Source: an uncultured Gemmatimonadales bacterium
Lineage (GTDB): Bacteria > Gemmatimonadota > Gemmatimonadetes > Longimicrobiales > RSA9
Length of the DNA stretch: 64,000 nt
NCBI GenBank assembly: GCA_963798085.1
Contig: CAWCRS010000005.1
Span: 448,001-512,000, forward strand
Direction of reading: 5' to 3'
Shown: positions 3 to 14,070 of the stretch, one piece after another
Layout: every line of letters starts with the position of its first letter
How positions within the stretch are numbered: the stretch's first letter is position 1
Position numbers and translations under genes: made by a program
The notes under the pieces: model-generated
The model's input: the letters and a program-made list of their open reading frames with translations, nothing else
The model's database searches: none
Told to the model about the DNA's origin: nothing

Positions 3-200
3 GCCGGCGGCACGGGCACGCTGCTGATCGAGGATGATGGCGTCGGATTCGGGGGCGCGTGTCTCGATAACACGGGATTAGGACTGCGCATCATGAACTA
101 CCGTGCCAGCATGGTGGGCGGCGCGCTGGAAGTGCGGCCGGGCGAGGCAGGAGGCGTCACGGTGGCCTGCCGCTTTCCCGCGGACGGAGGCGTGCCGTGA
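3..200 (+). CDS. Sensor histidine kinase, C-terminal HATPase fragment (NarL/HisKA_3 type), truncated by window edge
   Basis: Manual translation gives LLIEDDGVGF...TGLGLRIMNYRASMVGGALEV...GVTVACRFP; the TGA overlaps the GTG of the next gene (GTGA). Confidence 0.85.
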   Translation, partial: AGGTGTLLIEDDGVGFGGACLDNTGLGLRIMNYRASMVGGALEVRPGEAGGVTVACRFPADGGVP

Positions 201-886
201 CGGCGGATTCCGTGCGCGGCTACCAGGGGCGGGGCAAACACCGTGTTTTTGTCGTGGACGATCACCCCATCGTGCGGCAGGGGCTGGCGCTGCTCATCAA
301 CCAGCAGCCGGACCTGATGGTGTGCGGCGAGGCGGAGGACGCGAACCAGGTGCTGCAGGCAATCGACGCGGCGCAGCCGGACGTTCTCGTGCTGGACATC
401 ACGCTGCGCGGCCCGGACGGCATCGACGTTCTGAAGATGGTGCGCTCCGCCCAGCCGGAATTGCCGGTGCTGATCCTGTCCATGCACGACGAATCGCTCT
501 ACGCGGAGCGGGCACTGCGGGCGGGCGCCAACGGCTACATCATGAAGCAGGAAGCAACGGAGAACGTGCTGGTGGCCCTGCGGCGCATTCTGCGGGGCGA
601 AGTACACGTGAGCCCGCGCGTCGCCCACCGCATCGTGCAGCAGCTCGTGCCCGGCTCTCCGCGGGCCAGGCCGGCGTCGATCGCGAGCCTGAGCGATCGC
701 GAGCTCGAGGTGTTCCGCCTGATCGGAGCCGGTTACGGCACGCGCCGCATCGCGCAGGAACTGCACCTCAGTGTGAAGACCGTGGAATCGTACCAGGCGC
801 ACATCAAGGAGAAGCTCTCGCTGGACGGAGCGCGCGCCCTCATGCGCCGCGCCATCGAATGGACTCTGCAGGAAGAACGTGGCTGA
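197..886 (+). CDS. NarL/FixJ-family response regulator (REC + LuxR HTH)
   Basis: VVDDHPIVRQGL, phospho-acceptor in VLDITL, GYIMK, C-terminal LSDRELEVFRLIG...IAQELHLSVKTVESY. Confidence 0.95.
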   Translation: MTADSVRGYQGRGKHRVFVVDDHPIVRQGLALLINQQPDLMVCGEAEDANQVLQAIDAAQPDVLVLDITLRGPDGIDVLKMVRSAQPELPVLILSMHDESLYAERALRAGANGYIMKQEATENVLVALRRILRGEVHVSPRVAHRIVQQLVPGSPRARPASIASLSDRELEVFRLIGAGYGTRRIAQELHLSVKTVESYQAHIKEKLSLDGARALMRRAIEWTLQEERG

Positions 887-1417: not shown

Positions 1418-2479
<1,062 letters not shown>

Positions 2480-2532: not shown

Positions 2533-4323
2533 ATGAGCACGATGACCGCCCGGGATGCGACGACACGCGGCAGCTCGCGCAAGCTGGTCGAGATGAACTG
2601 GGATCCAATCACGCGCATTGTGGGCAGCCTGGGCATCTTCACCAAGATCGATTTCGAGAACCGGGAAGTGGCGGAGTGCCACAGCACCTCGTCGATCTTC
2701 CGCGGCTACAGCATTTTCATGAAGGGCAAGGATCCGCGCGACGCGCACTTCATCACGAGTCGCATCTGCGGCATCTGCGGCGACAATCACGCGACCTGCG
2801 CCATGTACGCACAGAACATGGCGTTCGGCGTGAAGCCGCCGCCGCTGGGCGAGTGGATCGTCAATCTGGGTGAGGCGGCCGAGTACATGTTCGACCACAA
2901 CATCTTCCAGGACAACCTGGTGGGGGTCGACTTCTGCGAACAGATGGTGAAGGCCACCAACCCGGGCGTGTGGGAAAAGGCGCAGAAGACGGAAGCGCCC
3001 AACGCGGCGCTGCACGGGCACCGCACCATCGCCGACATCATGACGGCGCTGAATCCGTTCACGGGCACGTTCTACCGCGAGACGCTGCACGTGAGCCGCT
3101 ACACGCGCGAGATGTTCTGTCTCATGGAAGGCCGGCACGTGCATCCCTCGACGCTCTATCCCGGCGGCGTCGGCACGGTGCCCACGGTGCAGCTCTTCAC
3201 CGACTACCTCGTCCGGCTGGCGCGCTACGCCGAATTCATGAAGAAGTGCGTGCCGCTGCACGATGACCTGTTCAACTTCTTCTACGATGCGCTGCCCGGT
3301 TACGAGAAGGTGGGATTGCGGCGCACGCTGCTGGGATGCTGGGGCTCGTTCAACGATCCCGACGCCTGCGACTACACCTACAGGAACATGTCGAGCTGGG
3401 GCGACAGGATGTACGTGACGCCGGGTGTGGTGGTGGACGGCAAGCTGGTGACGCACGACCTGGTGGACATCAACCTGGGCATCCGCATTCTGCTGGGGCA
3501 CTCATTCTACGATGACTGGGACCGGTCGGAGCGGTTCGTGGCGACCGATCCGCTGGGCAACGCGGTGGACCAGCGGCATCCCTGGAATCAGACGACGCTC
3601 CCGAAGCCCCAGAAGCGCGACTTCGACGGCGCCTACAGCTGGACCATGTCGCCGCGCTGGTTCGACGGCAAGGACCACCTGGCGCTGGACACGGGCGGCG
3701 GTCCCATTGCCCGCCTCTGGGCGACGGCACTGGCAGGCATCGTGGACAACGGCTACGTAAAGTCCACGGGCAGCAGCGTGAAGATGTATCTGCCGAAGAC
3801 GGCCACACTGCCGGACGCGGAATTCGAGTGGAAGATCCCGCAGTGGAGCAACGCCATCGAGCGCGATCGTGCGCGCACCTATTTCCAGGTCTATGCCGCC
3901 GCGTGCGCCTACTATTTCGTGGAGAAGGCGCTGGCCGAACTGCACGCGGGCCGCACGCGCACATGGAGCGAGTTCGAAGTGCCGCAGGAAGCGGTTGCCT
4001 GCGGTTTCCACGAAGCGGTGCGTGGCGTGCTCTCGCATCACGTGGTGATTCGTGATGGCAAGATCGCGAACTACCATCCGTATCCGCCCACGCCGTGGAA
4101 CGGCAGCGTGCGCGATGTCTACGGCACACCGGGTCCGTACGAGGATGCGGTGCAGAACACGCCCATCTTCGAGGAGAACGGACCGGACACGTTCAAGGGC
4201 ATCGACATCATGCGCGCGGTGCGCAGCTTCGATCCCTGCCTGCCCTGCGGCGTGCACATGTACCTGGGCAACGGCAAGGTGCTGCAGACGCACCACTCCT
4301 CGATGTTCGGCCTGCATTCCTGA
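2533..4323 (+). CDS. hhyL: Group 1h [NiFe]-hydrogenase large subunit
   Basis: L1 motif TSRICGICGDNHATC and L2 motif SFDPCLPCGVH characteristic of group 1h; short C-terminal extension; AGGAG RBS before ATG 2533. Confidence 0.95.
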   Translation: MSTMTARDATTRGSSRKLVEMNWDPITRIVGSLGIFTKIDFENREVAECHSTSSIFRGYSIFMKGKDPRDAHFITSRICGICGDNHATCAMYAQNMAFGVKPPPLGEWIVNLGEAAEYMFDHNIFQDNLVGVDFCEQMVKATNPGVWEKAQKTEAPNAALHGHRTIADIMTALNPFTGTFYRETLHVSRYTREMFCLMEGRHVHPSTLYPGGVGTVPTVQLFTDYLVRLARYAEFMKKCVPLHDDLFNFFYDALPGYEKVGLRRTLLGCWGSFNDPDACDYTYRNMSSWGDRMYVTPGVVVDGKLVTHDLVDINLGIRILLGHSFYDDWDRSERFVATDPLGNAVDQRHPWNQTTLPKPQKRDFDGAYSWTMSPRWFDGKDHLALDTGGGPIARLWATALAGIVDNGYVKSTGSSVKMYLPKTATLPDAEFEWKIPQWSNAIERDRARTYFQVYAAACAYYFVEKALAELHAGRTRTWSEFEVPQEAVACGFHEAVRGVLSHHVVIRDGKIANYHPYPPTPWNGSVRDVYGTPGPYEDAVQNTPIFEENGPDTFKGIDIMRAVRSFDPCLPCGVHMYLGNGKVLQTHHSSMFGLHS

Positions 4324-4970
4324 TGGCCGCCACGAGCGAGTTCGAGCAGCACATCCAGCGCATCGATCAACTGGTCGGTGCGCTGGAAGCAGCGCCCGAT
4401 TCGGCGGTACGCACGTCGGCGCGCGAACTGGTGCAGCGCATCATGGAGCTGCACGGCGCCGGACTGGAGCGACTGCTCACAGTGGTGCACGAAGCGGGGG
4501 CCGCAGGCGGCTCCATGATCGAGAATCTCGCGCGTGATCCGCTGGTCAGCAGCCTGCTGCTGCTCTACGGCCTGCACCCTGTGGATCTGCCCACGCGGGT
4601 GCAGCAGGCGCTGGAGACGTCGCGGCCGTACCTGCGCTCGCACGGCGGCAACGTCGAGCTGGTGTCGGTCGATGCGGCGGGCACGGTGCGACTGCGCATG
4701 GAAGGCAGCTGTCACGGCTGCCCATCCTCCGCGCTCACGCTGAAACTGGCCATCGAGCAGGCCATCCGGGAAGCGGCGCCGGATGTGCTGGCGATCGAGG
4801 TGGAAGGCGAAACTTCACAACCGCCGCAGCCTGCGCCGCTGCCTGAACATCTCGTACCGCTGGGGTACAGCGGGCGCAACGGTACGGTGAACACAGGCGC
4901 CGGACAACGCTCCGGCAACGGGACGGGAGACGTCGCCTGCACTACGGCGGACGCCGTGTCACCAGCTTGA
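4323..4970 (+). CDS. NifU/Nfu-like Fe-S protein of the hhy cluster (HhyE-like)
   Basis: LLLYGLHP, RPYLRSHGGNVEL, GSCHGCPSS (CxxC); coupled to the hhyL stop (TGATG). Confidence 0.85.
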   Translation: MAATSEFEQHIQRIDQLVGALEAAPDSAVRTSARELVQRIMELHGAGLERLLTVVHEAGAAGGSMIENLARDPLVSSLLLLYGLHPVDLPTRVQQALETSRPYLRSHGGNVELVSVDAAGTVRLRMEGSCHGCPSSALTLKLAIEQAIREAAPDVLAIEVEGETSQPPQPAPLPEHLVPLGYSGRNGTVNTGAGQRSGNGTGDVACTTADAVSPA

Positions 4971-5629
4971 CCGTGGCGCGCGCACCACTCCAGACGGGCG
5001 ATGCGGCGTTCGCCAATCTGCGCCGTTTCGTGCAACGGCGTGCGCCCGAAGAGCGTTGCGACATGTGCGCGCGCAGCATCGCCGCGGAGCACGATCACCT
5101 GATCGAGCTGAAGACGCGGCAGCTGTCCTGCGCGTGTCCGGCCTGCGCGGTGCTGTTCAGCGGCCAGACGGGGATGCGGCACAAGCGCGTGCCGCGGCGG
5201 GTGCGTCTGCTCGAGGATTTCCGGATGAGCGACGCGCAGTGGGACGGCCTGCGCATCCCCATCAACCTCGCCTTCTTCTTTCACAGCAGCACGGAAGGCC
5301 GCACGCTGGTCTTCTATCCCAGCCCGGCCGGTCCCACGGAGTCGCTGCTGCCGCTGGACACGTGGCAGGACGTGGTGCGTGATAACGACGTGTTACAGGA
5401 TGCGCAGACCGACGTCGAGGCGCTGCTCGTGAACCGTTCGGCACACGCGCGCGGCGCGGGTCCGGCCGAGTACTATCTGCTGGGCATCGACGAGTGCTAC
5501 CGCCTGGTGGGTCTGATCCGCGCGCGCTGGAAGGGTCTGCACGGAGGCAGCGAGGTGTGGCAGTCGATCGGCGACTTCTTCGACGAGCTGCGGCGTCGTG
5601 CGCGGGCCGGCGGGGGACATCGTGCCTGA
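4967..5629 (+). CDS. Hydrogenase-associated accessory protein (DUF5947/HhaA-like)
   Basis: ERCDMC...H...CACPAC, IPINLAFFF, FYPSPAGPTES, IDECYRLVGLIR..W.GLHGG; position in operon. Confidence 0.75.
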   Translation: MTVARAPLQTGDAAFANLRRFVQRRAPEERCDMCARSIAAEHDHLIELKTRQLSCACPACAVLFSGQTGMRHKRVPRRVRLLEDFRMSDAQWDGLRIPINLAFFFHSSTEGRTLVFYPSPAGPTESLLPLDTWQDVVRDNDVLQDAQTDVEALLVNRSAHARGAGPAEYYLLGIDECYRLVGLIRARWKGLHGGSEVWQSIGDFFDELRRRARAGGGHRA

Positions 5630-6272
5630 CCTGAGCTTCGAAATCGAGGGCGTGGAAGCCGTGCGCTTCGCGGTCACGCCGCAGCTCACATTCCAGATGG
5701 GCGTCAGCAACAGCGTGCCGGACGAAGCGGTGGCGACCGTCGTGCTGCGCTGCCAGATCCAGATCGAGGTGGCACGTCGGCGCTACGGCAGCGCGGAGGA
5801 GGAGCGGTTGCGCGACCTGTTCGGCGAGCCTGCTCGCTGGAGCCAGACGCTGCGCACCATGCTGTGGACACACGTCAATGTGGTGGTGAGTCCCTTCACC
5901 GCGCACACCACCGTGGCAGTGCCCGTGCCGTGCACTTACGACTTCAATGTCGCTGCCACCAAGTACTTCTATGGCCTGACGGAGGGCGAGATCCCGCTCT
6001 CGTTCCTGTTCAGCGGCACGGTGTTCTACGAAGTCGGAGAGGGCGGTCTCATGGCGGCGCCGATCTCGTGGGACAAGGAAGCGCGCTTCCGGCTGCCCGT
6101 GCAGACGTGGCAGGAGCTGATGGACGCCTATTACCCTAACACGGCGTGGCTGCAGCTGCGGCGCGATGTGTTCGACCGGCTGTACCAGTACAAGGTGAAA
6201 CGGGGCATTCCGACGTGGGAGCAGGCGCTGGAGAACATCCTGCCCCCGGCGGAAGATGCGGTGCAGCAATGA
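5622..6272 (+). CDS. Hydrogenase-associated accessory protein (DUF6084/HhaB-like)
   Basis: LRCQIQIE, DLFGEP.RW..TLR..LW, PCTYDFNVAATKYF, FLFSGTVFY; overlaps the upstream stop. Confidence 0.75.
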   Translation: MPDLSFEIEGVEAVRFAVTPQLTFQMGVSNSVPDEAVATVVLRCQIQIEVARRRYGSAEEERLRDLFGEPARWSQTLRTMLWTHVNVVVSPFTAHTTVAVPVPCTYDFNVAATKYFYGLTEGEIPLSFLFSGTVFYEVGEGGLMAAPISWDKEARFRLPVQTWQELMDAYYPNTAWLQLRRDVFDRLYQYKVKRGIPTWEQALENILPPAEDAVQQ

Positions 6273-7315
6273 GAGAGAGCGAGGTCGAGCGGGTGGCGGC
6301 GGCGCTGCTGTACGAGGGCTACATGCTGTATCCGTACCGGCCCTCAGCCGTGAAGAACCGGCAGCGTTTCAATTTCGGCGTGCTCTATCCCGAAGCATGG
6401 TGTCAGGGACGGCCGGGCTCGGACTCGTGGTACCTGCAGGCAGAGTTCCTGGTGACGGGCGCGGCCACTGCGCAGCTCGATGTGCGACTGCGCTTCCTGC
6501 AGCTCGTCGACCGCCAGGTGGCCGAGGTACTCGAGCCGGTCGCGGAGCTGGCGCCTGCGACAACGTACCAGCCGGTCCCGGCGCTGGCGGTGGAGGGGCG
6601 CACCTACTCGAGCTGGCAGGAAGCCACCGAGCGCGAGGTGGTGGTGTCCTGCCCGGTGATGGCACTCAGCGCGCCCGGCTTCGAGCATTCGTTCCAGGAG
6701 CCGGCCGGCGAGCAGATCGAGCCGCTGCGCACGGCTTCGGGACTCGTGGCCGGGGTGTGCCTCCGCCGGCGCGCGGCTCTGCACGGCGCGCTGCAGGCGT
6801 CTGGGATGATATGCGGTGACGACGTCGCGCGCGTCACGGTGCGCGTCGTGAACCAGGCGCTAACCGACGGTTCGAACGAGCGCGGTGCGGCCCTGATGCA
6901 GTCGCTGGTCTCGGCACACCTGATCGCGCGGGTGCGGGATGGCGCGTTCTGCTCACTGCTGGACCCGCCGCCCGAGTTGCGCGCGGCCGCGAGCGCCTGC
7001 CGCCAACACAGTGTGTGGCCGGTACTGGCGGGCGAAGAGGGAACGCACGACACGCTGCTCTGCTCACCCATCGTCGTCTACGATTATCCGCGTCTTGCGC
7101 CGGAGAGCCGGGGCGACTTCTTCGACGGCACGGAGATCGACGAGATGCTGTCGCTGCGCGTGCTGACGCTGACGGACGCGGAGAAGCTGGAGATGGCGCA
7201 GGCCGATGAGCTGACGCGTCGTCTGCTGGAGCGCACGGAGGCGATGGGCGAAGCCGAGCTGATGAGCCTGCATGGCACCCTGCGCGACATGCGCCGACCT
7301 GGAGCTGCGCGATGA
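6269..7315 (+). CDS. Hydrogenase-associated accessory protein (HhaC-like)
   Basis: LYEGYMLYPYRPSAVKNRQRF and SPIVVYDYP..APES.GDFFDGTEIDEML.LR..TLTD.EK, recalled from hhy clusters; ATGA coupling. Confidence 0.7.
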   Translation: MRESEVERVAAALLYEGYMLYPYRPSAVKNRQRFNFGVLYPEAWCQGRPGSDSWYLQAEFLVTGAATAQLDVRLRFLQLVDRQVAEVLEPVAELAPATTYQPVPALAVEGRTYSSWQEATEREVVVSCPVMALSAPGFEHSFQEPAGEQIEPLRTASGLVAGVCLRRRAALHGALQASGMICGDDVARVTVRVVNQALTDGSNERGAALMQSLVSAHLIARVRDGAFCSLLDPPPELRAAASACRQHSVWPVLAGEEGTHDTLLCSPIVVYDYPRLAPESRGDFFDGTEIDEMLSLRVLTLTDAEKLEMAQADELTRRLLERTEAMGEAELMSLHGTLRDMRRPGAAR

Positions 7316-8154
7316 GCGCGTCGCGTCACGACCCGCTGGAGCCGCACGCACTGGAGTTCCTGCGCGTCACGGAGGCAGTGCTGCGCGCGGGTGACCCGGT
7401 GCGCATCCTGCCGCGCGCGGGTGGCGACGTGTTCGATCTCGCGCTGGCGGGCAAGGCAGGCATCATCGAATCCATCGAAACGGATTTCGAAGGCCGGCTG
7501 CACTGTGCCGTGGTGCTGGACGATGACCCCGGCAGCGACCTGGGCATGGCGCGCATGCCTGCGCACCGGTTCTTCTTCGCGCCCGATGAGCTGGAGCGTC
7601 TGGCGCAACGCGCGCCGCGCAGCGTGCCGGCGGCGAGCGGTACGCTGCTGATCGCCGGCATCGGCAACATCTTCCTGGGCGATGATGCGTTCGGCGTGGC
7701 CGTAGTGCGCCGTCTGTTCAGCCGACCGTTGCCGGAGAACGTGACGTTAGTCGACTACGGGATTCGCGGCTTCGATCTGGCGTGCGCGCTGGTACGCGGC
7801 TACGACCGCACGATCCTGGTCGATGCGTGTCCACGCGGTGAAGCGCCGGGAACGCTGTACGTGATGGAGCCCGACCTGACGGCACTGGATGCGGCTGCCG
7901 ACGCCGCGGCCGTCGTGGACGGACACAGCATGAATCCGCTGAACGTGCTGCGTCTGGCGCGCACCCTGGGCGGACCGCTGAACCCGGTACTGCTGGTGGG
8001 TTGCGAGCCCGAGTCGCTGGGACCGGAGGAAGGCCTGATCGGCCTGAGCAAACCGGTGGAGGCGGCGGTGGAGCAGGCCGTGCCCCTGATCGAGTCATTG
8101 ATTGCCGAGTTCCTGGAGCAGCAGACCGCGGTCAGCGATCGAACCACATCCTGA
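7312..8154 (+). CDS. Hydrogenase maturation protease with an extra N-terminal domain
   Basis: C-terminal IAGIGNIFLGDDAFGV, DYGIRG, ILVDA, GHSMNP, VGCEP (HupD/HybD family); about 100-aa N-terminal extension. Confidence 0.85.
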   Translation: MSASRHDPLEPHALEFLRVTEAVLRAGDPVRILPRAGGDVFDLALAGKAGIIESIETDFEGRLHCAVVLDDDPGSDLGMARMPAHRFFFAPDELERLAQRAPRSVPAASGTLLIAGIGNIFLGDDAFGVAVVRRLFSRPLPENVTLVDYGIRGFDLACALVRGYDRTILVDACPRGEAPGTLYVMEPDLTALDAAADAAAVVDGHSMNPLNVLRLARTLGGPLNPVLLVGCEPESLGPEEGLIGLSKPVEAAVEQAVPLIESLIAEFLEQQTAVSDRTTS

Positions 8155-8169
8155 GAGAGGTGAAATCAC

Positions 8170-8382
8170 ATGAGGGATCGGATCGAGGTATCGGAGAACA
8201 CGGGTGCGGCGGACCGGGACACGCTGCTCCTGTTCGGCGGTCTGGCGCTCATCGTCATGGGTGCGGGCATGATCCTGTCCAACGCAACGGTGCGGCGTCA
8301 GCTGGGCCAGTTCGGAGCCGGCAATCTGCTGCAGGCGGGCCTGCCTGATTTCCAGCGGTACCTGAAGCTGAGGTCAATGTGA
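8170..8382 (+). CDS. Small single-TM membrane protein ending PDFQRYLKLRSM
   Basis: GAGGTG RBS, one hydrophobic helix, stop overlaps the next start. Confidence 0.7.
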   Translation: MRDRIEVSENTGAADRDTLLLFGGLALIVMGAGMILSNATVRRQLGQFGAGNLLQAGLPDFQRYLKLRSM

Positions 8383-8972
8383 TCCTGCAGTCCGCGCGAG
8401 CCCTGTTCGACAGAGAGACCCACGTGACACAGTACGTCATCGATGCGGGAGTCAGCCGGTTCACCGTGCGCGCCTTTGCCGCGGGCATGCTGTCGGCACT
8501 GGGCCACAATCCGACGTTCGCGGTGCGCGATCTGAAGGGCGAACTGGAGTTCGACGAACAGAATCCTGCCGCTTCGTCGATGCGGCTGGTGGTGCGCGCC
8601 TCGTCGCTGGAGCTGCAGGACAACATGAGCGAGAAGGACCGGCGCGAGATTCTGCGGACGTTGAACGAGGACGTACTGGAAACGGCGCGTTATCCCGACA
8701 TCGTGTACGAGTGCCGCAGCGTGACGGTGCAGCGGAGCGATGGGCCGCTGGACCTTCTGCTGGACGGTGAGCTGAGCCTGCACGGGGTCACGCGACGGCA
8801 GGCGATTCCCGTGCGCATTTCGGTGATGGGCAGCCTGCTGCGCGCGTTCGGCGAGTTCACGCTGCGGCAGACCGACTATGGCATCAGGCTGGTGGCGGTC
8901 GCGGGCCGGATGCTGCAGGTGAAGGATGAGCTGAAGTTCTCGTTCGAGCTGGTAGCGCGCGCAGCGGCCTGA
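8379..8972 (+). CDS. YceI-family (polyisoprenoid-binding beta-barrel) protein, no signal peptide
   Basis: YVIDAGVSRFTV, LETARYPDIVY, GELSLHGVTR, LRQTDYGI, VKDELKF. Confidence 0.85.
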   Translation: MILQSARALFDRETHVTQYVIDAGVSRFTVRAFAAGMLSALGHNPTFAVRDLKGELEFDEQNPAASSMRLVVRASSLELQDNMSEKDRREILRTLNEDVLETARYPDIVYECRSVTVQRSDGPLDLLLDGELSLHGVTRRQAIPVRISVMGSLLRAFGEFTLRQTDYGIRLVAVAGRMLQVKDELKFSFELVARAAA

Positions 8973-9019: not shown

Positions 9020-9343
9020 ATGTGCCTCGCCATACCCGGCAAGATCGTGGAGCTGGCCGCGGGTGACGTTCCGCTCGCGCTGGTCGAGGTGGCGGGTGTG
9101 CGCCGCCGCGTCGACCTCGCTCTGCTGGCGGACGATCCGCCCGTGCTGGGCGACTGGGTGCTGATCCACGTCGGATTCGCCATGAGCAGGATCAGCGAGG
9201 CGGCGGCGCAGGAACAGATGCGGATGCTGGCGCTGCTGGGCGAGGACGAGGCTGCCATGCAGGAGGTGCGCGGCTACGGCCTGCACAATGGCGATGCGGG
9301 CGATACGCGCGGCACGGAGACATCCAATGAAATTCGTCGATGA
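9020..9343 (+). CDS. hypC: Hydrogenase chaperone HypC
   Basis: MCLAIPG N-terminus, GDWVLIHVGFA. Confidence 0.95.
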   Translation: MCLAIPGKIVELAAGDVPLALVEVAGVRRRVDLALLADDPPVLGDWVLIHVGFAMSRISEAAAQEQMRMLALLGEDEAAMQEVRGYGLHNGDAGDTRGTETSNEIRR

Positions 9344-10456
9344 GTTCCGCGACCCCGGGATCATTGCCAGGACGCGGGAAGAGATTCGTCGTCTGGCGGA
9401 TCCGGGCCGGCACTACCGCCTCATGGAGGTGTGCGGCGGGCACACGCACGCCATCTACCGTTTCGGGCTGAAGGACCTGCTGCCGGCGAACATCGAGTTG
9501 ATCCACGGCCCGGGGTGTCCGGTGTGCGTCCTGCCCATGGGCCGCATCGACGATGGGCTGGCGCTGGCCGACGAGCCGCATTTCGTGTTCACGGCGTTCG
9601 GCGACATGATGCGCGTGCCGGGCACGCAGGGCAGCCCGCTGGCGCACAAGGCCATGGGCAAGGATGTGCGCATCGTGTATTCGCCGGCGGACGCGCTCAA
9701 GCTGGCGCAGCGCAATCCCGACCGGCACGTGATGTTCTTCGCCATCGGCTTCGAGACCACGGCGCCGTCCACCGCCCTCACGCTGATGCGCGCGAAGCAG
9801 CTGGGCGTGCACAACTTCTCGGTGTTCTGCAACCACGTGACGATCATCCCGGCCATCCGTGCGATCCTGGATTCGCCGGACATGCGGCTGGACGCCTTCA
9901 TCGGGCCGGGTCACGTTTCGACGGTGATCGGCTGCCGCCCGTACGAGTGGATCGCGCAGGACGCAGGGCAAGCCCATCGTCGTCTCGGGCTTCGAGCCAC
10001 TGGACATGCTGCAGTCGATGGTCATGCTGCTGCGCCAGCTGCGTGACGGTGAAGCGAAGGTGGAGAACCAGTACGACCGCGTGGTGCCGTGGGAAGGGAA
10101 CCGCGCGGCGCTGCAGGCGATGGCGGAAGTCTTCGAGCTGCGCCCGTACTTCGAATGGCGGGGTCTCGGCTTCATCTCGCAATCGGCTCTGCGCATCAGC
10201 GAGCGCTACGCGGAGTACGACGCCGAGCGGCTCTTCGACGTGCCGGGCGTACGGGTGACCGACCCCAAGGCGGCGCAGTGCGGCGAGGTGCTCAAGGGCG
10301 TGCTGAAGCCGGTGCAATGCAAGCTGTTCGGCCGCGAGTGCACGCCGGAGCACCCGGTCGGCGCACTGATGGTTTCCTCGGAAGGCTCATGCGCAGCCTA
10401 CTACAACTACGAACACCGGAAGACGGAATCGAGCGCGGCACTGGTCACCGGCGTGA
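9327..10456 (+). CDS. hypD: Hydrogenase formation protein HypD (apparent frameshift near 9965; 3' end uncertain)
   Basis: MEVCGGHTH, HGPGCPVC, GFETT, GPGHVS in one frame; CGEVLKG, CTPEHPVGALMVSSEGSCAAYY in the next. Confidence 0.9.
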
Positions 10457-11518
10457 ATGGGGACGCGGTCACAGCCGCGATTCCGCCGCTCCGCTTTCGT
10501 GATCCCGGCATCGAGATGGCGCACGGCGCGGGCGGCAAGGCCAGCCGGCGGCTGGTCGAGGGTCTGTTTGCGCCGCTGCTGCTGTCGGGCAGCGGCGCAG
10601 CGCTCGGCGATGCCGCGCGACGTGACGGTGGACGGCACCCGGATGGCGTTGACCACCGACAGCTTCGTGGTGACGCCGCTGCGTTTCCCCGGCGGCTCGA
10701 TCGGCGAGCTGGCCGTCAACGGCACCGTGAACGATCTCGCGGTGTCGGGCGCACGCGCGATCGCGCTGGTCACGACCTTCGTGCTCGAGGCGGGACTGCC
10801 CACGAGGAGCTGGAGGCAGAGGTGCGCGCGATGGCGGCCGCGGCCCGCGCGCGCGGGCGTCGCGATCGTGGGCGGCGACACAAGGTGGTGGAGCACGGCA
10901 AGGCCGACCGGATGTACATCACCACCACCGGCATTGGGCGGCACCATCCCGGGCGTCAGCGCTGGACGCGCGCTCGGTGCGCGCCGGGCGACAAGGTGCT
11001 GCTCTCCGGGCCCGATCGGCGATCACGGGATCACCATTCTGCTGGCGCGCGGGGAACTGGACCTGGAGGCGGACCTGCGCTCGGACACGCGCTCGGTTTT
11101 GCCGCTGGTGGAGGCGCTGGCGGCGGCGGCCGGCGCCGGGCACTTCGCTGGATGCGGGATCCCACCCGCGGCGGCGTGGCGACGTCGCTCAACGAACTGG
11201 CGCGCGACTGCGGCCTGGCGGTGGCATCTCGTCGAGGAGCAGATCCCGATGCGCGACGAGGTGCGCGGCGCCTGCGAGCTGCTCGGGCTGGACCCGCTGC
11301 ACATCGCCAACGAAGGCCAGTTCCTGGCGGTGGTGGCGGCCGGATGCGCGGATGCGGCGCTGGCGGCGCTGCAGCGCGACGCCGGGCGGCGAGGAGGCGC
11401 GCATCATCGGCGAGGTGCGGGACGCAGCCCGCCGCCACGGTGCTGGTGCGACACGCGCTACGGCGGAAGCCGCATCGTGGACATGCTGGTGGGCGATCCG
11501 CTGCCGCGCATCTGTTAG
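10453..11518 (+). CDS. hypE: Hydrogenase maturation protein HypE (several apparent frameshifts)
   Basis: MAHGAGG, TTDSFVV.PL.FPGGSIGELAVNGTVNDLA, MRDPTRGG, ANEG, C-terminal LPRIC across frames. Confidence 0.9.
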
Positions 11519-11526
11519 CGGACAGC

Positions 11527-12736
11527 ATGGGATGGCGAGCCGAGCGATCCACGCTCTGCGACGCGCCGCTCGAGGAAAGGCCTGCTCGAACGCAACGAGC
11601 TCTTCGAGCGACTTCTTCGCCCGGGAAGCGCCGCGCCTGGCCGAGGCCTGCCGCGAGATGTCGTAGCGCTTCCTGCGCGGCGGGCCGGCTGCTGGCGTTC
11701 GGACGGGGGCCGTACGCCACCGACGCGCAGCACGTGTCGGTCGAGTTCGTGCATCCCGGTCATCGTGGGCAAGCGGGCGCTGCCCGCGCTCGATCTCTCG
11801 CTGCTGTTCGGGCCGTGGCTGGAGGCGATCGCTGCAGCCCGAAGACATCGTGATGGGCTTCGGGCCGCCCGACGGCGATCCCGAAGTGCCGGCGGCGCTG
11901 CGACTGGCCGCGGGCCGGGGCGCGATGACATTCGCGCTGCCGGGCAGCGACGGCTCCTATGCCGTGGCGCCGGCGACGCGCCGATCCCTTCATGCACCAG
12001 GAACTGGTCGGAGATTCTCTATCACACGCTCTGGGAACGGTGCACGTCTTCTTCGAGCACCGCGAGCTGGGACACGCATGTCGGGCAGGCCGGCTTTCTG
12101 TATCCGTTCCTCGGGCAGGCGACGCCAGGACGAGCCGGACGCTCCTGCCGAGGTCGCGGCTCCATCCGCATGAAGGTGGCGGACGATGCGCAGCTGCGGC
12201 GCCGGGTGGCGCGGGAGCAGGCCGAGCCGATCAGCCGATGCCACGCGTGGCCATCAGCGAGCGGCTGGCGCGGGGCGGCAAGCTCATCATGCTCGGCAAC
12301 GGCGGCTCGGCGACCGACGCCAACGACTTGGCGCTCGATTGCGTGGCGCCGCCGCCCGGGTACGCGGCCGCTGCCGGCCATCTCGCTGGCGCTCGAGCCC
12401 GCCAACATCACGGCGATCGCGAATGATGTCGGCATCGACGTCGTTTTCCTGCGCCAGCTGATCGCCCATGGCGCAGCCCGGACGATGTGGTGATCGCGAT
12501 CTCCACCAGCGGCGGCTCGCGCAATATCATCGTGGCGCTGGAGGAGGCGCGTCGGCGGGGTTTGCTGACGCGTGGCACTGCTGGGCTACGACGGTGGCGA
12601 GATCCGGCGCCGCGGGCTGGCCGATTTTTCGCTCGTCGTGCAGTCCGACTACATCCCGCGCATCCAGGAAGTGCAGGCGAGCATCTACCACATCATGCGC
12701 GAAGGACTGGAGCAGGCGAGGCATGGCGCGCATTGA
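11527..12736 (+). CDS. SIS-domain (GmhA/phosphoheptose isomerase-like) protein, multiply frameshifted
   Basis: TDAQHVSVEFVHP, GKRALPA, GNGGSATDAND, ITAIAND, ISTSGGSRN, IPRIQEVQ distributed over frames. Confidence 0.75.
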
Positions 12737-13019
12737 GCTGTACGGCACGGCGGGCTGTCAGGCCACGCAGGACATGCGCGAGTGGCTGGACTGGCGCGGC
12801 GTCGAGTTTGCCGAATTCGATGTCGAGGCGGACCCGCAGGCGAGGGAGCGGCTGCGCGCGCTGGCGGGCGATCCGCGCACGGTGCCCGTACTCATTGAGG
12901 ACGGACGCGTGGCGCAGGTAGGCTGGCAGGGTCGCGGTTGCGTCATTGGCGACCACACGCCCGGGAACATGCAGGCGGGGATGAGCCCGCCGCCCTTGTC
13001 GAGTCGGATGGGCGGCTGA
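12723..13019 (+). CDS. Glutaredoxin-like protein
   Basis: IELYGTAGCQAT, EFDVEAD, RTVPVL (cis-Pro motif), GWQGRGC. Confidence 0.75.
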   Translation: MARIELYGTAGCQATQDMREWLDWRGVEFAEFDVEADPQARERLRALAGDPRTVPVLIEDGRVAQVGWQGRGCVIGDHTPGNMQAGMSPPPLSSRMGG

Positions 13020-13021
13020 CC

Positions 13022-13366
13022 ATGCACGAGTTGTCGATTGCCCTGAGCCTGGTGGATGCAGCGCGCGAGGAGGGCGAGCGACTGGGCACGCCGGTGCTGG
13101 CCGTACACGTGCGCGTGGGTCGCCTCTCGGGCGTGGTGAGCGAGGCGCTGCTCTCCTGCTACGAGATCGCGTGCCACGAGACACCGCTGCAGGGCTCGCG
13201 ACTGGTGATCGAGGAAGTGCCCGTGGTGGTCTTCTGCGATGACTGCCGCGCGCAGCGGGACCTGCCCCTGGGCTCGTGGTTCACGTGTCCGGAGTGCGGC
13301 GCGCCGACGCCCGATGTGCGGCAGGGTCGCGAGCTGGAGCTGGTGGCGCTGGAGGTGGCGGCGTGA
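13022..13366 (+). CDS. hypA: Nickel metallochaperone HypA
   Basis: MHELSIA, CDDC...CPECG, GRELEL. Confidence 0.95.
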   Translation: MHELSIALSLVDAAREEGERLGTPVLAVHVRVGRLSGVVSEALLSCYEIACHETPLQGSRLVIEEVPVVVFCDDCRAQRDLPLGSWFTCPECGAPTPDVRQGRELELVALEVAA

Positions 13367-14070
13367 GCACGGAACCGCGTCTGGTCGAGGTGCGCAGGAA
13401 CGTGCTCAAGGAGAACGATCGTGCAGCCCGCCAGTTGCGCGAGCAGTTCCGCGCCGCGGGCGTCTGCACGGTGAGCCTGGTCTCGGGTCCGGGCTCGGGC
13501 AAGACGATGTTCCTGGAGCGCACGCTGACGCTGCTGCAGCCCGGATACCGTGTGGCCGCGCTCGTGGGTGACCTGGCAACCGAAAACGATGCGCAGCGAC
13601 TCGCGCGCAGCAAGGCACCGGTGCGCCAGATCGTGACCGGCACAGTCTGTCACCTGGAAGCCGCGATGGTGCAGCGGGCGGCAGAAGGCTGGGACTTCGG
13701 ACAGCTCGACTTCCTCTTCATCGAGAACGTGGGCAACCTGGTGTGTCCCGCATCGTTCGATCTCGGCGAAGAACTGCGGCTCGTCCTGATGTCCGTGACG
13801 GAAGGCGAAGACAAGCCCCTCAAGTACCCTACCATCTTCAACACCGCGGACGTCGCGATCATCACGAAGCTGGACCTGGCCGCCGCGGTGGAGTTCGACC
13901 AAGACACCGCCACGCGCAACATCCTCGCCGTGCGTCCGGGTATGCCGATTCTGTGCGTGTCGGCGCGCACCGGTGAGGGCATGAGCACGTGGCTCGAGCT
14001 GCTGGCCTCGCGCCGGCGGCAGCTGCACGCTTCGGGGAGCGACCACGCCGCACTGTCGGGAGCGCTGTAA
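13363..14070 (+). CDS. hypB: Nickel-insertion GTPase HypB
   Basis: GPGSGKT, CHLEA, ENVGNLVCPA, EGEDKPLKYP, TKLD. Confidence 0.95.
   Translation: MSTEPRLVEVRRNVLKENDRAARQLREQFRAAGVCTVSLVSGPGSGKTMFLERTLTLLQPGYRVAALVGDLATENDAQRLARSKAPVRQIVTGTVCHLEAAMVQRAAEGWDFGQLDFLFIENVGNLVCPASFDLGEELRLVLMSVTEGEDKPLKYPTIFNTADVAIITKLDLAAAVEFDQDTATRNILAVRPGMPILCVSARTGEGMSTWLELLASRRRQLHASGSDHAALSGAL

Follow-up and report, generated by a model that had tools for sequence, protein, structure and literature searches.

A long-form DUF6893-type microprotein and a signal-less YceI barrel in a group 1h [NiFe] hydrogenase operon: candidate components of a membrane-tethered quinone carrier

The window, the 64,000-nt stretch of DNA analysed here (genome G000, contig C5, positions 448001-512000), carries a hydrogenase operon on its + strand. 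A NarL-type response regulator gene (197..886), common in YceI-carrying loci, lies upstream of hhyS (1418..2479), the small subunit gene, whose top PDB match is HofK of 5aa5 (E 1.4e-195), and of hhyL (2533..4323), the large subunit gene, for which HofG of 5aa5 is the only PDB match at E<=1e-60. These are followed by hhyE (NifU-like), DUF5947, DUF6084 and hhaC-like conserved genes (4320..7315, starts approximate), a hydrogenase maturation protease gene (7312..8154; PF01750, TIGR00072), a 70-aa ORF (8170..8382) and a YceI ORF (8379..8972). Directly after the latter comes hypC (9020..9343), at the head of a run of profile-matched genes on the same strand (hypC, hypD, hypE, SIS-domain, glutaredoxin-like and hypB; 9020..14070). 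The HofG/HofK-like subunits, the NifU-like/DUF5947/DUF6084/hhaC-like/protease gene order and the lack of a cytochrome b gene place the operon, as judged from sequence, in group 1h. The window HhyL shares 80% identity with its C. necator pHG1 counterpart, the gene order equals that on pHG1, and the genes from hhyE to the hhaC-like gene have the same order in the C. necator pHG1, Methylocystis and Kitasatospora records. The N-terminal domain of the protease matches the end of the hhaC-like gene of other loci (a split tblastn match, L008-L009). In a genome profile search no PF01292 cytochrome b was found in the hydrogenase cluster, in agreement with an earlier reading made from the sequence alone; of the two PF01292 copies in the genome, one is next to a second hydrogenase on C7 and the other is on C4. 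The genome encodes enzymes of the futalosine pathway of menaquinone synthesis, in the form of two PF02621 (MqnA/MqnD family) genes.

Between 9327 and 12724 the hypD, hypE and SIS-domain region is split by several frameshifts relative to the intact locus of G196, and these are probably assembly indels. In one contig of sequencing run X1 the base at 9965, close to where hypD is broken, is missing, which is too thin as evidence, and the X1 contigs cover a small share of the window. The hypF zinc-finger had no match in the window cluster (12953-13015); its sole match in the genome is at C7:967655-967903, with the second, cytochrome-b-containing hydrogenase. A scan for promoters and terminators was uninformative: it gave no promoter, and its 7 terminator-like sites compare with 5.3 expected. 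Just upstream of the window and of the response regulator gene lies a second hhyS (C5:445655-446638; L021:9656-10642), which is 70% identical to the first and whose C-terminal tail is missing. A second hhyS is also found in L005, L012, L023, L026, L041, L054, L076, L090, L123, L128 and L129, all of which carry YceI; it was rejected as a new observation, as an Acidobacteria case is already described in passages of PMC8027828.

Both small ORFs are real genes with coding-type codon bias, GC3 being 0.83 and 0.85 in the two as compared with 0.88 in hhyL, and GC2 0.42-0.44. The 70-aa ORF starts with ATG 15 nt past the protease stop and overlaps the YceI ORF, which runs for 197 aa from a GTG at 8379, by 4 nt (GTGA). 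The sequence-only reading had described a 70-aa protein with one transmembrane segment and a signal-less YceI protein between the protease and hypC genes, and this arrangement was borne out in the ORFs, their GC3 and the single hydrophobic helix of the first product. Its further statement that the stop and start codons overlap holds for the open frame, but the start itself is not settled: a GTG at 8424, giving 182 aa, is equally possible, and the first 13 residues of the 197-aa form are modelled as disordered by AlphaFold2. An open overlapping GTG start occurs in 14 of 65 comparable loci, and the overlap was rejected as a conserved trait.

The YceI ORF product scores 64.9 bits against PF04264 (cut-off 23.7) over model positions 1-150, and its AlphaFold2 model (pLDDT 89) is predicted to adopt an extended, antiparallel, eight-stranded YceI barrel. 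The top Foldseek matches are all YceI entries, with E-values of 4e-12 to 5e-11, TM scores of 0.68-0.71 over the query and 13-20% identity to the solved members. The same predicted barrel is seen in BcnA of B. cenocepacia (5ixh), PA0423 of P. aeruginosa (7bwl), TT1927b of T. thermophilus (1wub) and E. coli YceI (1y0g), with BcnA and PA0423 as the closest folds. Alternating hydrophobic strand positions are conserved in the clade to which the window protein belongs, a pattern at most suggestive of an open hydrophobic tunnel. By hydropathy and inspection, no signal peptide was recognized in the window protein or in its clade; the best 12-mer hydropathy within residues 1-45 is 1.5 and lies on a beta-strand. 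At position 45, 97% of 93 clade rows have Pro and 95% of 21 secreted relatives have His, His43 is common to both groups, and the median net charge is -2 in the clade versus +2 in the secreted relatives. The window barrel differs from the secreted BcnA-type YceI proteins in having no signal peptide, in residing in a hydrogenase operon and in the Pro typical of its clade at position 45. The YceI proteins found in this operon position are only 43-58% identical.

Tandem pairs of clade YceI genes occur in L038, L040, L050, L051, L056, L088, L092 and L123, the first copies forming their own branch of the tree, and P0123 is a fused double-barrel YceI protein of 400 aa; together these are hints of a heterodimer. 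A search of proteins of 388-2000 aa (8000 candidates scored) returned the double-barrel protein and one fusion of no relevance. The best 150 matches of the long-form peptide profile include 13 long proteins, in which what look like fusions of the peptide to YceI or to the protease were read as frameshift artefacts. No clean peptide-barrel fusion was found in these two sets.

The 70-aa microprotein has a short, polar N-terminus, a single glycine-rich hydrophobic helix (residues 18-36, mean hydropathy 2.31), an amphipathic insert at 38-58 (stretches 38-48 and 52-58) and a C-terminal family motif that closes with an invariant Met. Residues G24, G31, P59, D60, Y64 and M70 are invariant over 60 aligned long-form rows, and 59 aligned relatives occupy the same gene position. 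Its PF21833 (DUF6893) score is 24.1 bits, slightly below the cut-off of 24.6, and 19.6 bits in a second search; P0122, which is 62% identical to it, carries PF21833, and its nearest Atlas clusters are DUF6893 (score 0.96-0.97, recognition 2187 against a mark of 2300). The window peptide shares with DUF6893 the hydrophobic helix and the conserved C-terminal motif, but is about twice as long as the 32-position model. No solved structure resembling it was found (best E 0.89). By motif and profile search, DUF6893-type ORFs come in two size classes: short forms of about 32-45 aa, which do not have the amphipathic insert, and a long form in which the insert adds about 20 residues.

A DUF6893-type ORF was found in 25 of 29 group 1h loci (28 picked by hhyL and L109 by YceI, with profiles built partly from the same sequences), mostly directly 3' of the protease gene. 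By motif and profile search of these 29 loci it was not detected in L020, L120, L138 or L109, of which L020 and L120 encode divergent enzymes (66-67%). Seven of the eight plasmid loci examined, out of 13 matched records, have a short form: those of C. necator, Methylocystis, Kitasatospora, Embleya, a Mycobacterium and two Streptomyces. In all five of the annotated plasmid records examined, the short ORF is missing from the gene table yet present in the DNA. In the Mycobacterium plasmid 1h cluster (L136:16970-27776) the short DUF6893 ORF precedes the protease gene, and a nuo (complex I) operon comes directly after the cluster. The long form is tied to YceI, occurring in nine of the 11 loci with YceI and in none of the 18 without it. 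In a larger set, biased towards YceI, the distance from the end of the long form to a YceI gene is at most 350 bp in 65 of 68 cases; two of the other three lie at 429 and 444 bp, and the third (L086) is a misclassified two-helix ORF. Five loci (L005, L011, L125, L126 and L128) retain a short copy in addition to the long form, which suggests that the long form has a job of its own. The pairing has exceptions, YceI following a short peptide in L124 and having no detected peptide before it in L109. A long-form profile search returned 202 representatives at E<=0.001.

The claim that this YceI clade co-occurs with hhy loci was borne out. Among 2223 candidates, 1740 relatives were recognized, P0105 of the cultured Tunturibacter empetritectus being one carrier, and in a quick unrooted tree of 117 of 121 domain cores (four of less than 150 aa were dropped, and signal labels were assigned by hydropathy and eye) all 96 signal-less rows fall on one branch (SH-aLRT 86), apart from 21 signal-bearing rows. 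Hydrogenase genes lie beside 92 of the 96 signal-less rows; the signal-bearing rows, in a scan of 56 proteins selected from 142, have mixed neighbours and no hydrogenase gene. Among metagenome loci (the best 80 of 455 confirmed matches), 71 include a hydrogenase gene and 51 include one specific to hhy; hhyL is present in 19 and in each of these matches the window hhyL at 79-91%. The remaining nine comprise one short contig with the peptide, three signal-bearing relatives and five loci without a hydrogenase gene, two of the latter on contigs of less than 2.4 kb. The simplest history, inferred from these sequences, would be that a secreted barrel lost its signal peptide and entered the hydrogenase operon. 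Clade YceI genes are also found away from hydrogenase genes in L071:9280-10570, L091:2483-3581 and L078:4376-5803; L071 and L078 have long flanks with no hydrogenase gene nearby. In L071 and L091 the YceI gene follows a YtxH-like gene, possibly encoding another small membrane partner of YceI. L110:421-1497 has a secreted-type YceI relative and a MauE membrane domain in a single open frame, possibly a fused gene and possibly a pair of genes that overlap.

In the window's own phylum, ten of 350 other genomes have hhyL at >=67% identity, and two of these ten carry a clade YceI: G117 and G196, in which hhyL is 86-88% identical and YceI lies inside the operon. No other YceI profile match in the phylum has an E-value better than 1.6e-35, and the three of them that were inspected all bear a signal. 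In a sample of 300 Acidobacteriota genomes, which leaves out G351, found through YceI, 12 have hhyL at >=80% and nine of these have a clade YceI: in the operon in eight, and in G448 on a second contig with the nifU-to-protease genes; it is absent in three. An Acidobacteriota genome with a 67% HhyL enzyme has no clade YceI. One of the 287 hhyL-less Acidobacteriota genomes (G540) has a clade YceI next to hypC and hypD, close to the start of a contig, and G467 gave a broken match. Clade YceI was found in none of the eight plasmid 1h loci. In the HhyL tree, all 25 YceI-positive loci fall within one 29-row subclade (SH-aLRT 97), together with three YceI-negative loci, taken as losses, and one undetermined locus; 14 of the 25 were found through YceI, and the loci are related, such that the counts are not independent events. 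By these sequence comparisons, the YceI cassette is confined to one HhyL subclade, which is inferred to reach a second phylum, and the two genes differ in range, the microprotein family being near-universal and the barrel lineage-specific, a difference that the sequence-only reading had missed.

The sequence-only reading had proposed that the two proteins form a quinone relay for the 1h enzyme. The tie of the clade to hhy loci stands in its favour; as the general electron exit of 1h enzymes, YceI was rejected on its absence from all eight plasmid loci and from eight of the ten own-phylum genomes and on its three losses in its own subclade. Because YceI is absent from most sampled 1h lineages, it is not the general 1h route to quinone but an add-on. 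YceI and DUF6893 are known families. Literature searches, with subscription papers and supplements outside their scope, returned no paper linking YceI to a group 1h hydrogenase and none using the term DUF6893, and the word YceI is not in the main texts of PMC8027828 and PMC5900883; the link of YceI to 1h operons was thus not seen in the literature covered. Three points were tested directly in this analysis: that the peptide comes as a short form of near-universal range and a long form bound to YceI, that the clade has a secreted sister group from which a His-to-Pro switch sets it apart, and that the cassette stays within one HhyL subclade.

As far as is known, atmospheric H2 is taken up in soils mainly by group 1h enzymes. 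They are described, in passages of PMC6883350, PMC7174314 and 10.1101/769216, as membrane-bound and quinone-coupled with neither a transmembrane helix nor cytochrome b, the partner not being known. The M. smegmatis hhy operon is reported there to be without cytochrome b and HhyE to be essential (PMC6883350), Hhy to be tightly membrane-bound and HQNO-sensitive (10.1101/769216), and the Methylacidiphilum 1h enzyme to be membrane-associated, with no transmembrane helix and no known partner (PMC7174314). The cassette supplies two small, named candidates for this missing partner, the short DUF6893 peptide being the more general one. According to parts of PMC9113575, the ligand in most solved YceI structures is octaprenyl-phosphate, octaprenylphenol or ubiquinone-8, some YceI proteins are tethered to a membrane cytochrome, and the family binds many hydrophobic ligands. 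Premises of the sequence-only reading on YceI ligands, on Huc and on the open electron exit of 1h enzymes agree with the papers cited here.

We tentatively prefer the reading that the cassette is a membrane-tethered menaquinone carrier encoded by two genes and working, by analogy, like a split CoxG; this is possible, if somewhat short of probable. The long DUF6893 peptide would insert in the inner membrane and keep YceI, a cytoplasmic barrel, close to the membrane surface; there the barrel would load menaquinone and trade it with soluble HhySL, an add-on that may improve coupling in one branch of 1h enzymes. The short peptide could do a general anchoring job and, because it is present in most 1h loci, DUF6893 is a better candidate than YceI for the missing anchor of 1h enzymes. 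That DUF6893 is the general 1h membrane anchor, and that its long form recruits YceI to give a third, independently evolved quinone-extraction route after HucM and CoxG, is unlikely. The carrier reading draws support from the tie of the signal-less clade to hhy loci, the restriction of the long peptide to YceI loci among the 29, the short copy retained next to the long form in five loci, the quinone-type ligand precedent of the fold, the reported membrane association of 1h enzymes that have no transmembrane helix, the precedents of CoxG and HucM, the cluster without cytochrome b and the menaquinone genes. It is opposed by the usual lack of YceI in 1h operons and its three losses within its own HhyL subclade, the position of the cassette among maturation genes and not beside hhySL, YceI with a short peptide (L124) or none detected (L109), the lack of a clean peptide-barrel fusion, the loci L071 and L078 without a hydrogenase gene, and the diversity of YceI ligands (as described in PMC9113575). 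Against both the carrier and the anchor, C. necator pHG1 has a short DUF6893 ORF, yet its 1h enzyme is described in part of PMC7174314 as cytoplasmic.

CoxG is reported in 10.1101/2024.01.09.574806 to carry menaquinone from the membrane to a soluble enzyme and to meet both through a lysine patch. The likeness to the cassette is one of function: in both, a soluble lipid-binding-type domain is combined with a single membrane helix and encoded together with a trace-gas enzyme that is soluble. CoxG, however, is a widespread, experimentally shown SRPBCC protein in which a single polypeptide bears a lysine-rich docking face, whereas the window cassette has the YceI fold, two separate genes, a net acidic barrel, which also counts against the carrier reading, and a range of one subclade, and is known here from sequence and model. 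HucM, which brings menaquinone to soluble Huc (PMC10017518), is an accessory subunit linking a cytochrome-b-less hydrogenase to membrane menaquinone, as is proposed for the cassette, but it is a 188-aa tetrameric coiled-coil tube, and neither window protein is similar to it in size or fold.

The location of the cassette admits a role in maturation or assembly, in which the DUF6893 peptide would bring the protease, Hha or Hyp proteins together on the membrane and YceI would bind a lipid or small cofactor with no carriage of electrons. In nearly all cases the peptide gene comes directly after that of the maturation protease, YceI precedes hypC or hypA/hypB, and the invariant C-terminal motif with its final Met resembles a docking end for some partner that all 1h loci have in common. 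Because structural and maturation genes are mixed in 1h operons, however, gene position says little, and we know of no [NiFe] maturation step that needs a polyisoprenoid-type barrel. The C. necator case, with the peptide present and the enzyme cytoplasmic as described in PMC7174314, fits this role better than it fits anchoring; on balance the maturation role is considered rather unlikely. The resemblance to BcnA and PA0423 points to another function, that of a protective redox buffer in which the barrel would bind a quinol or lipid antioxidant and shield the enzyme or membrane from oxygen, not serving as electron exit, comparable to what has been proposed for BcnA with its membrane cytochrome. 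YceI lipocalins are tied to lipid-peroxide defence in parts of PMC9113575, a glutaredoxin-like gene lies in the same cluster, and an optional, repeatedly lost gene would suit a protective role. The BcnA system, though, is periplasmic and comes with a cytochrome b561, for which no PF01292 match was found in the scanned ORFs of the window cluster, and such a role would leave unexplained why YceI is so strictly paired with the long peptide, making this function doubtful.

The confinement to one HhyL subclade means that shared descent explains much of the co-occurrence, and the response regulator and the second hhyS travel in the same subclade. YceI could thus be a co-regulated passenger with a starvation or membrane function, or a binder of a ligand sensed with the upstream response regulator, riding in the operon of one lineage; the occurrence of L071, L078 and L091 away from hydrogenase genes, two of them beside a YtxH-like gene, is in keeping with this. 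The barrel has nevertheless been kept at one position across 43-58% identical proteins in two phyla, has lost its signal peptide and fixed a clade-specific His-to-Pro change, and exists in tandem copies and as a fused double barrel, and a passenger or regulatory role is distinctly improbable. Elsewhere on the contig of the window, a 22-tRNA gene array was observed on the + strand (C5:189593-193300).
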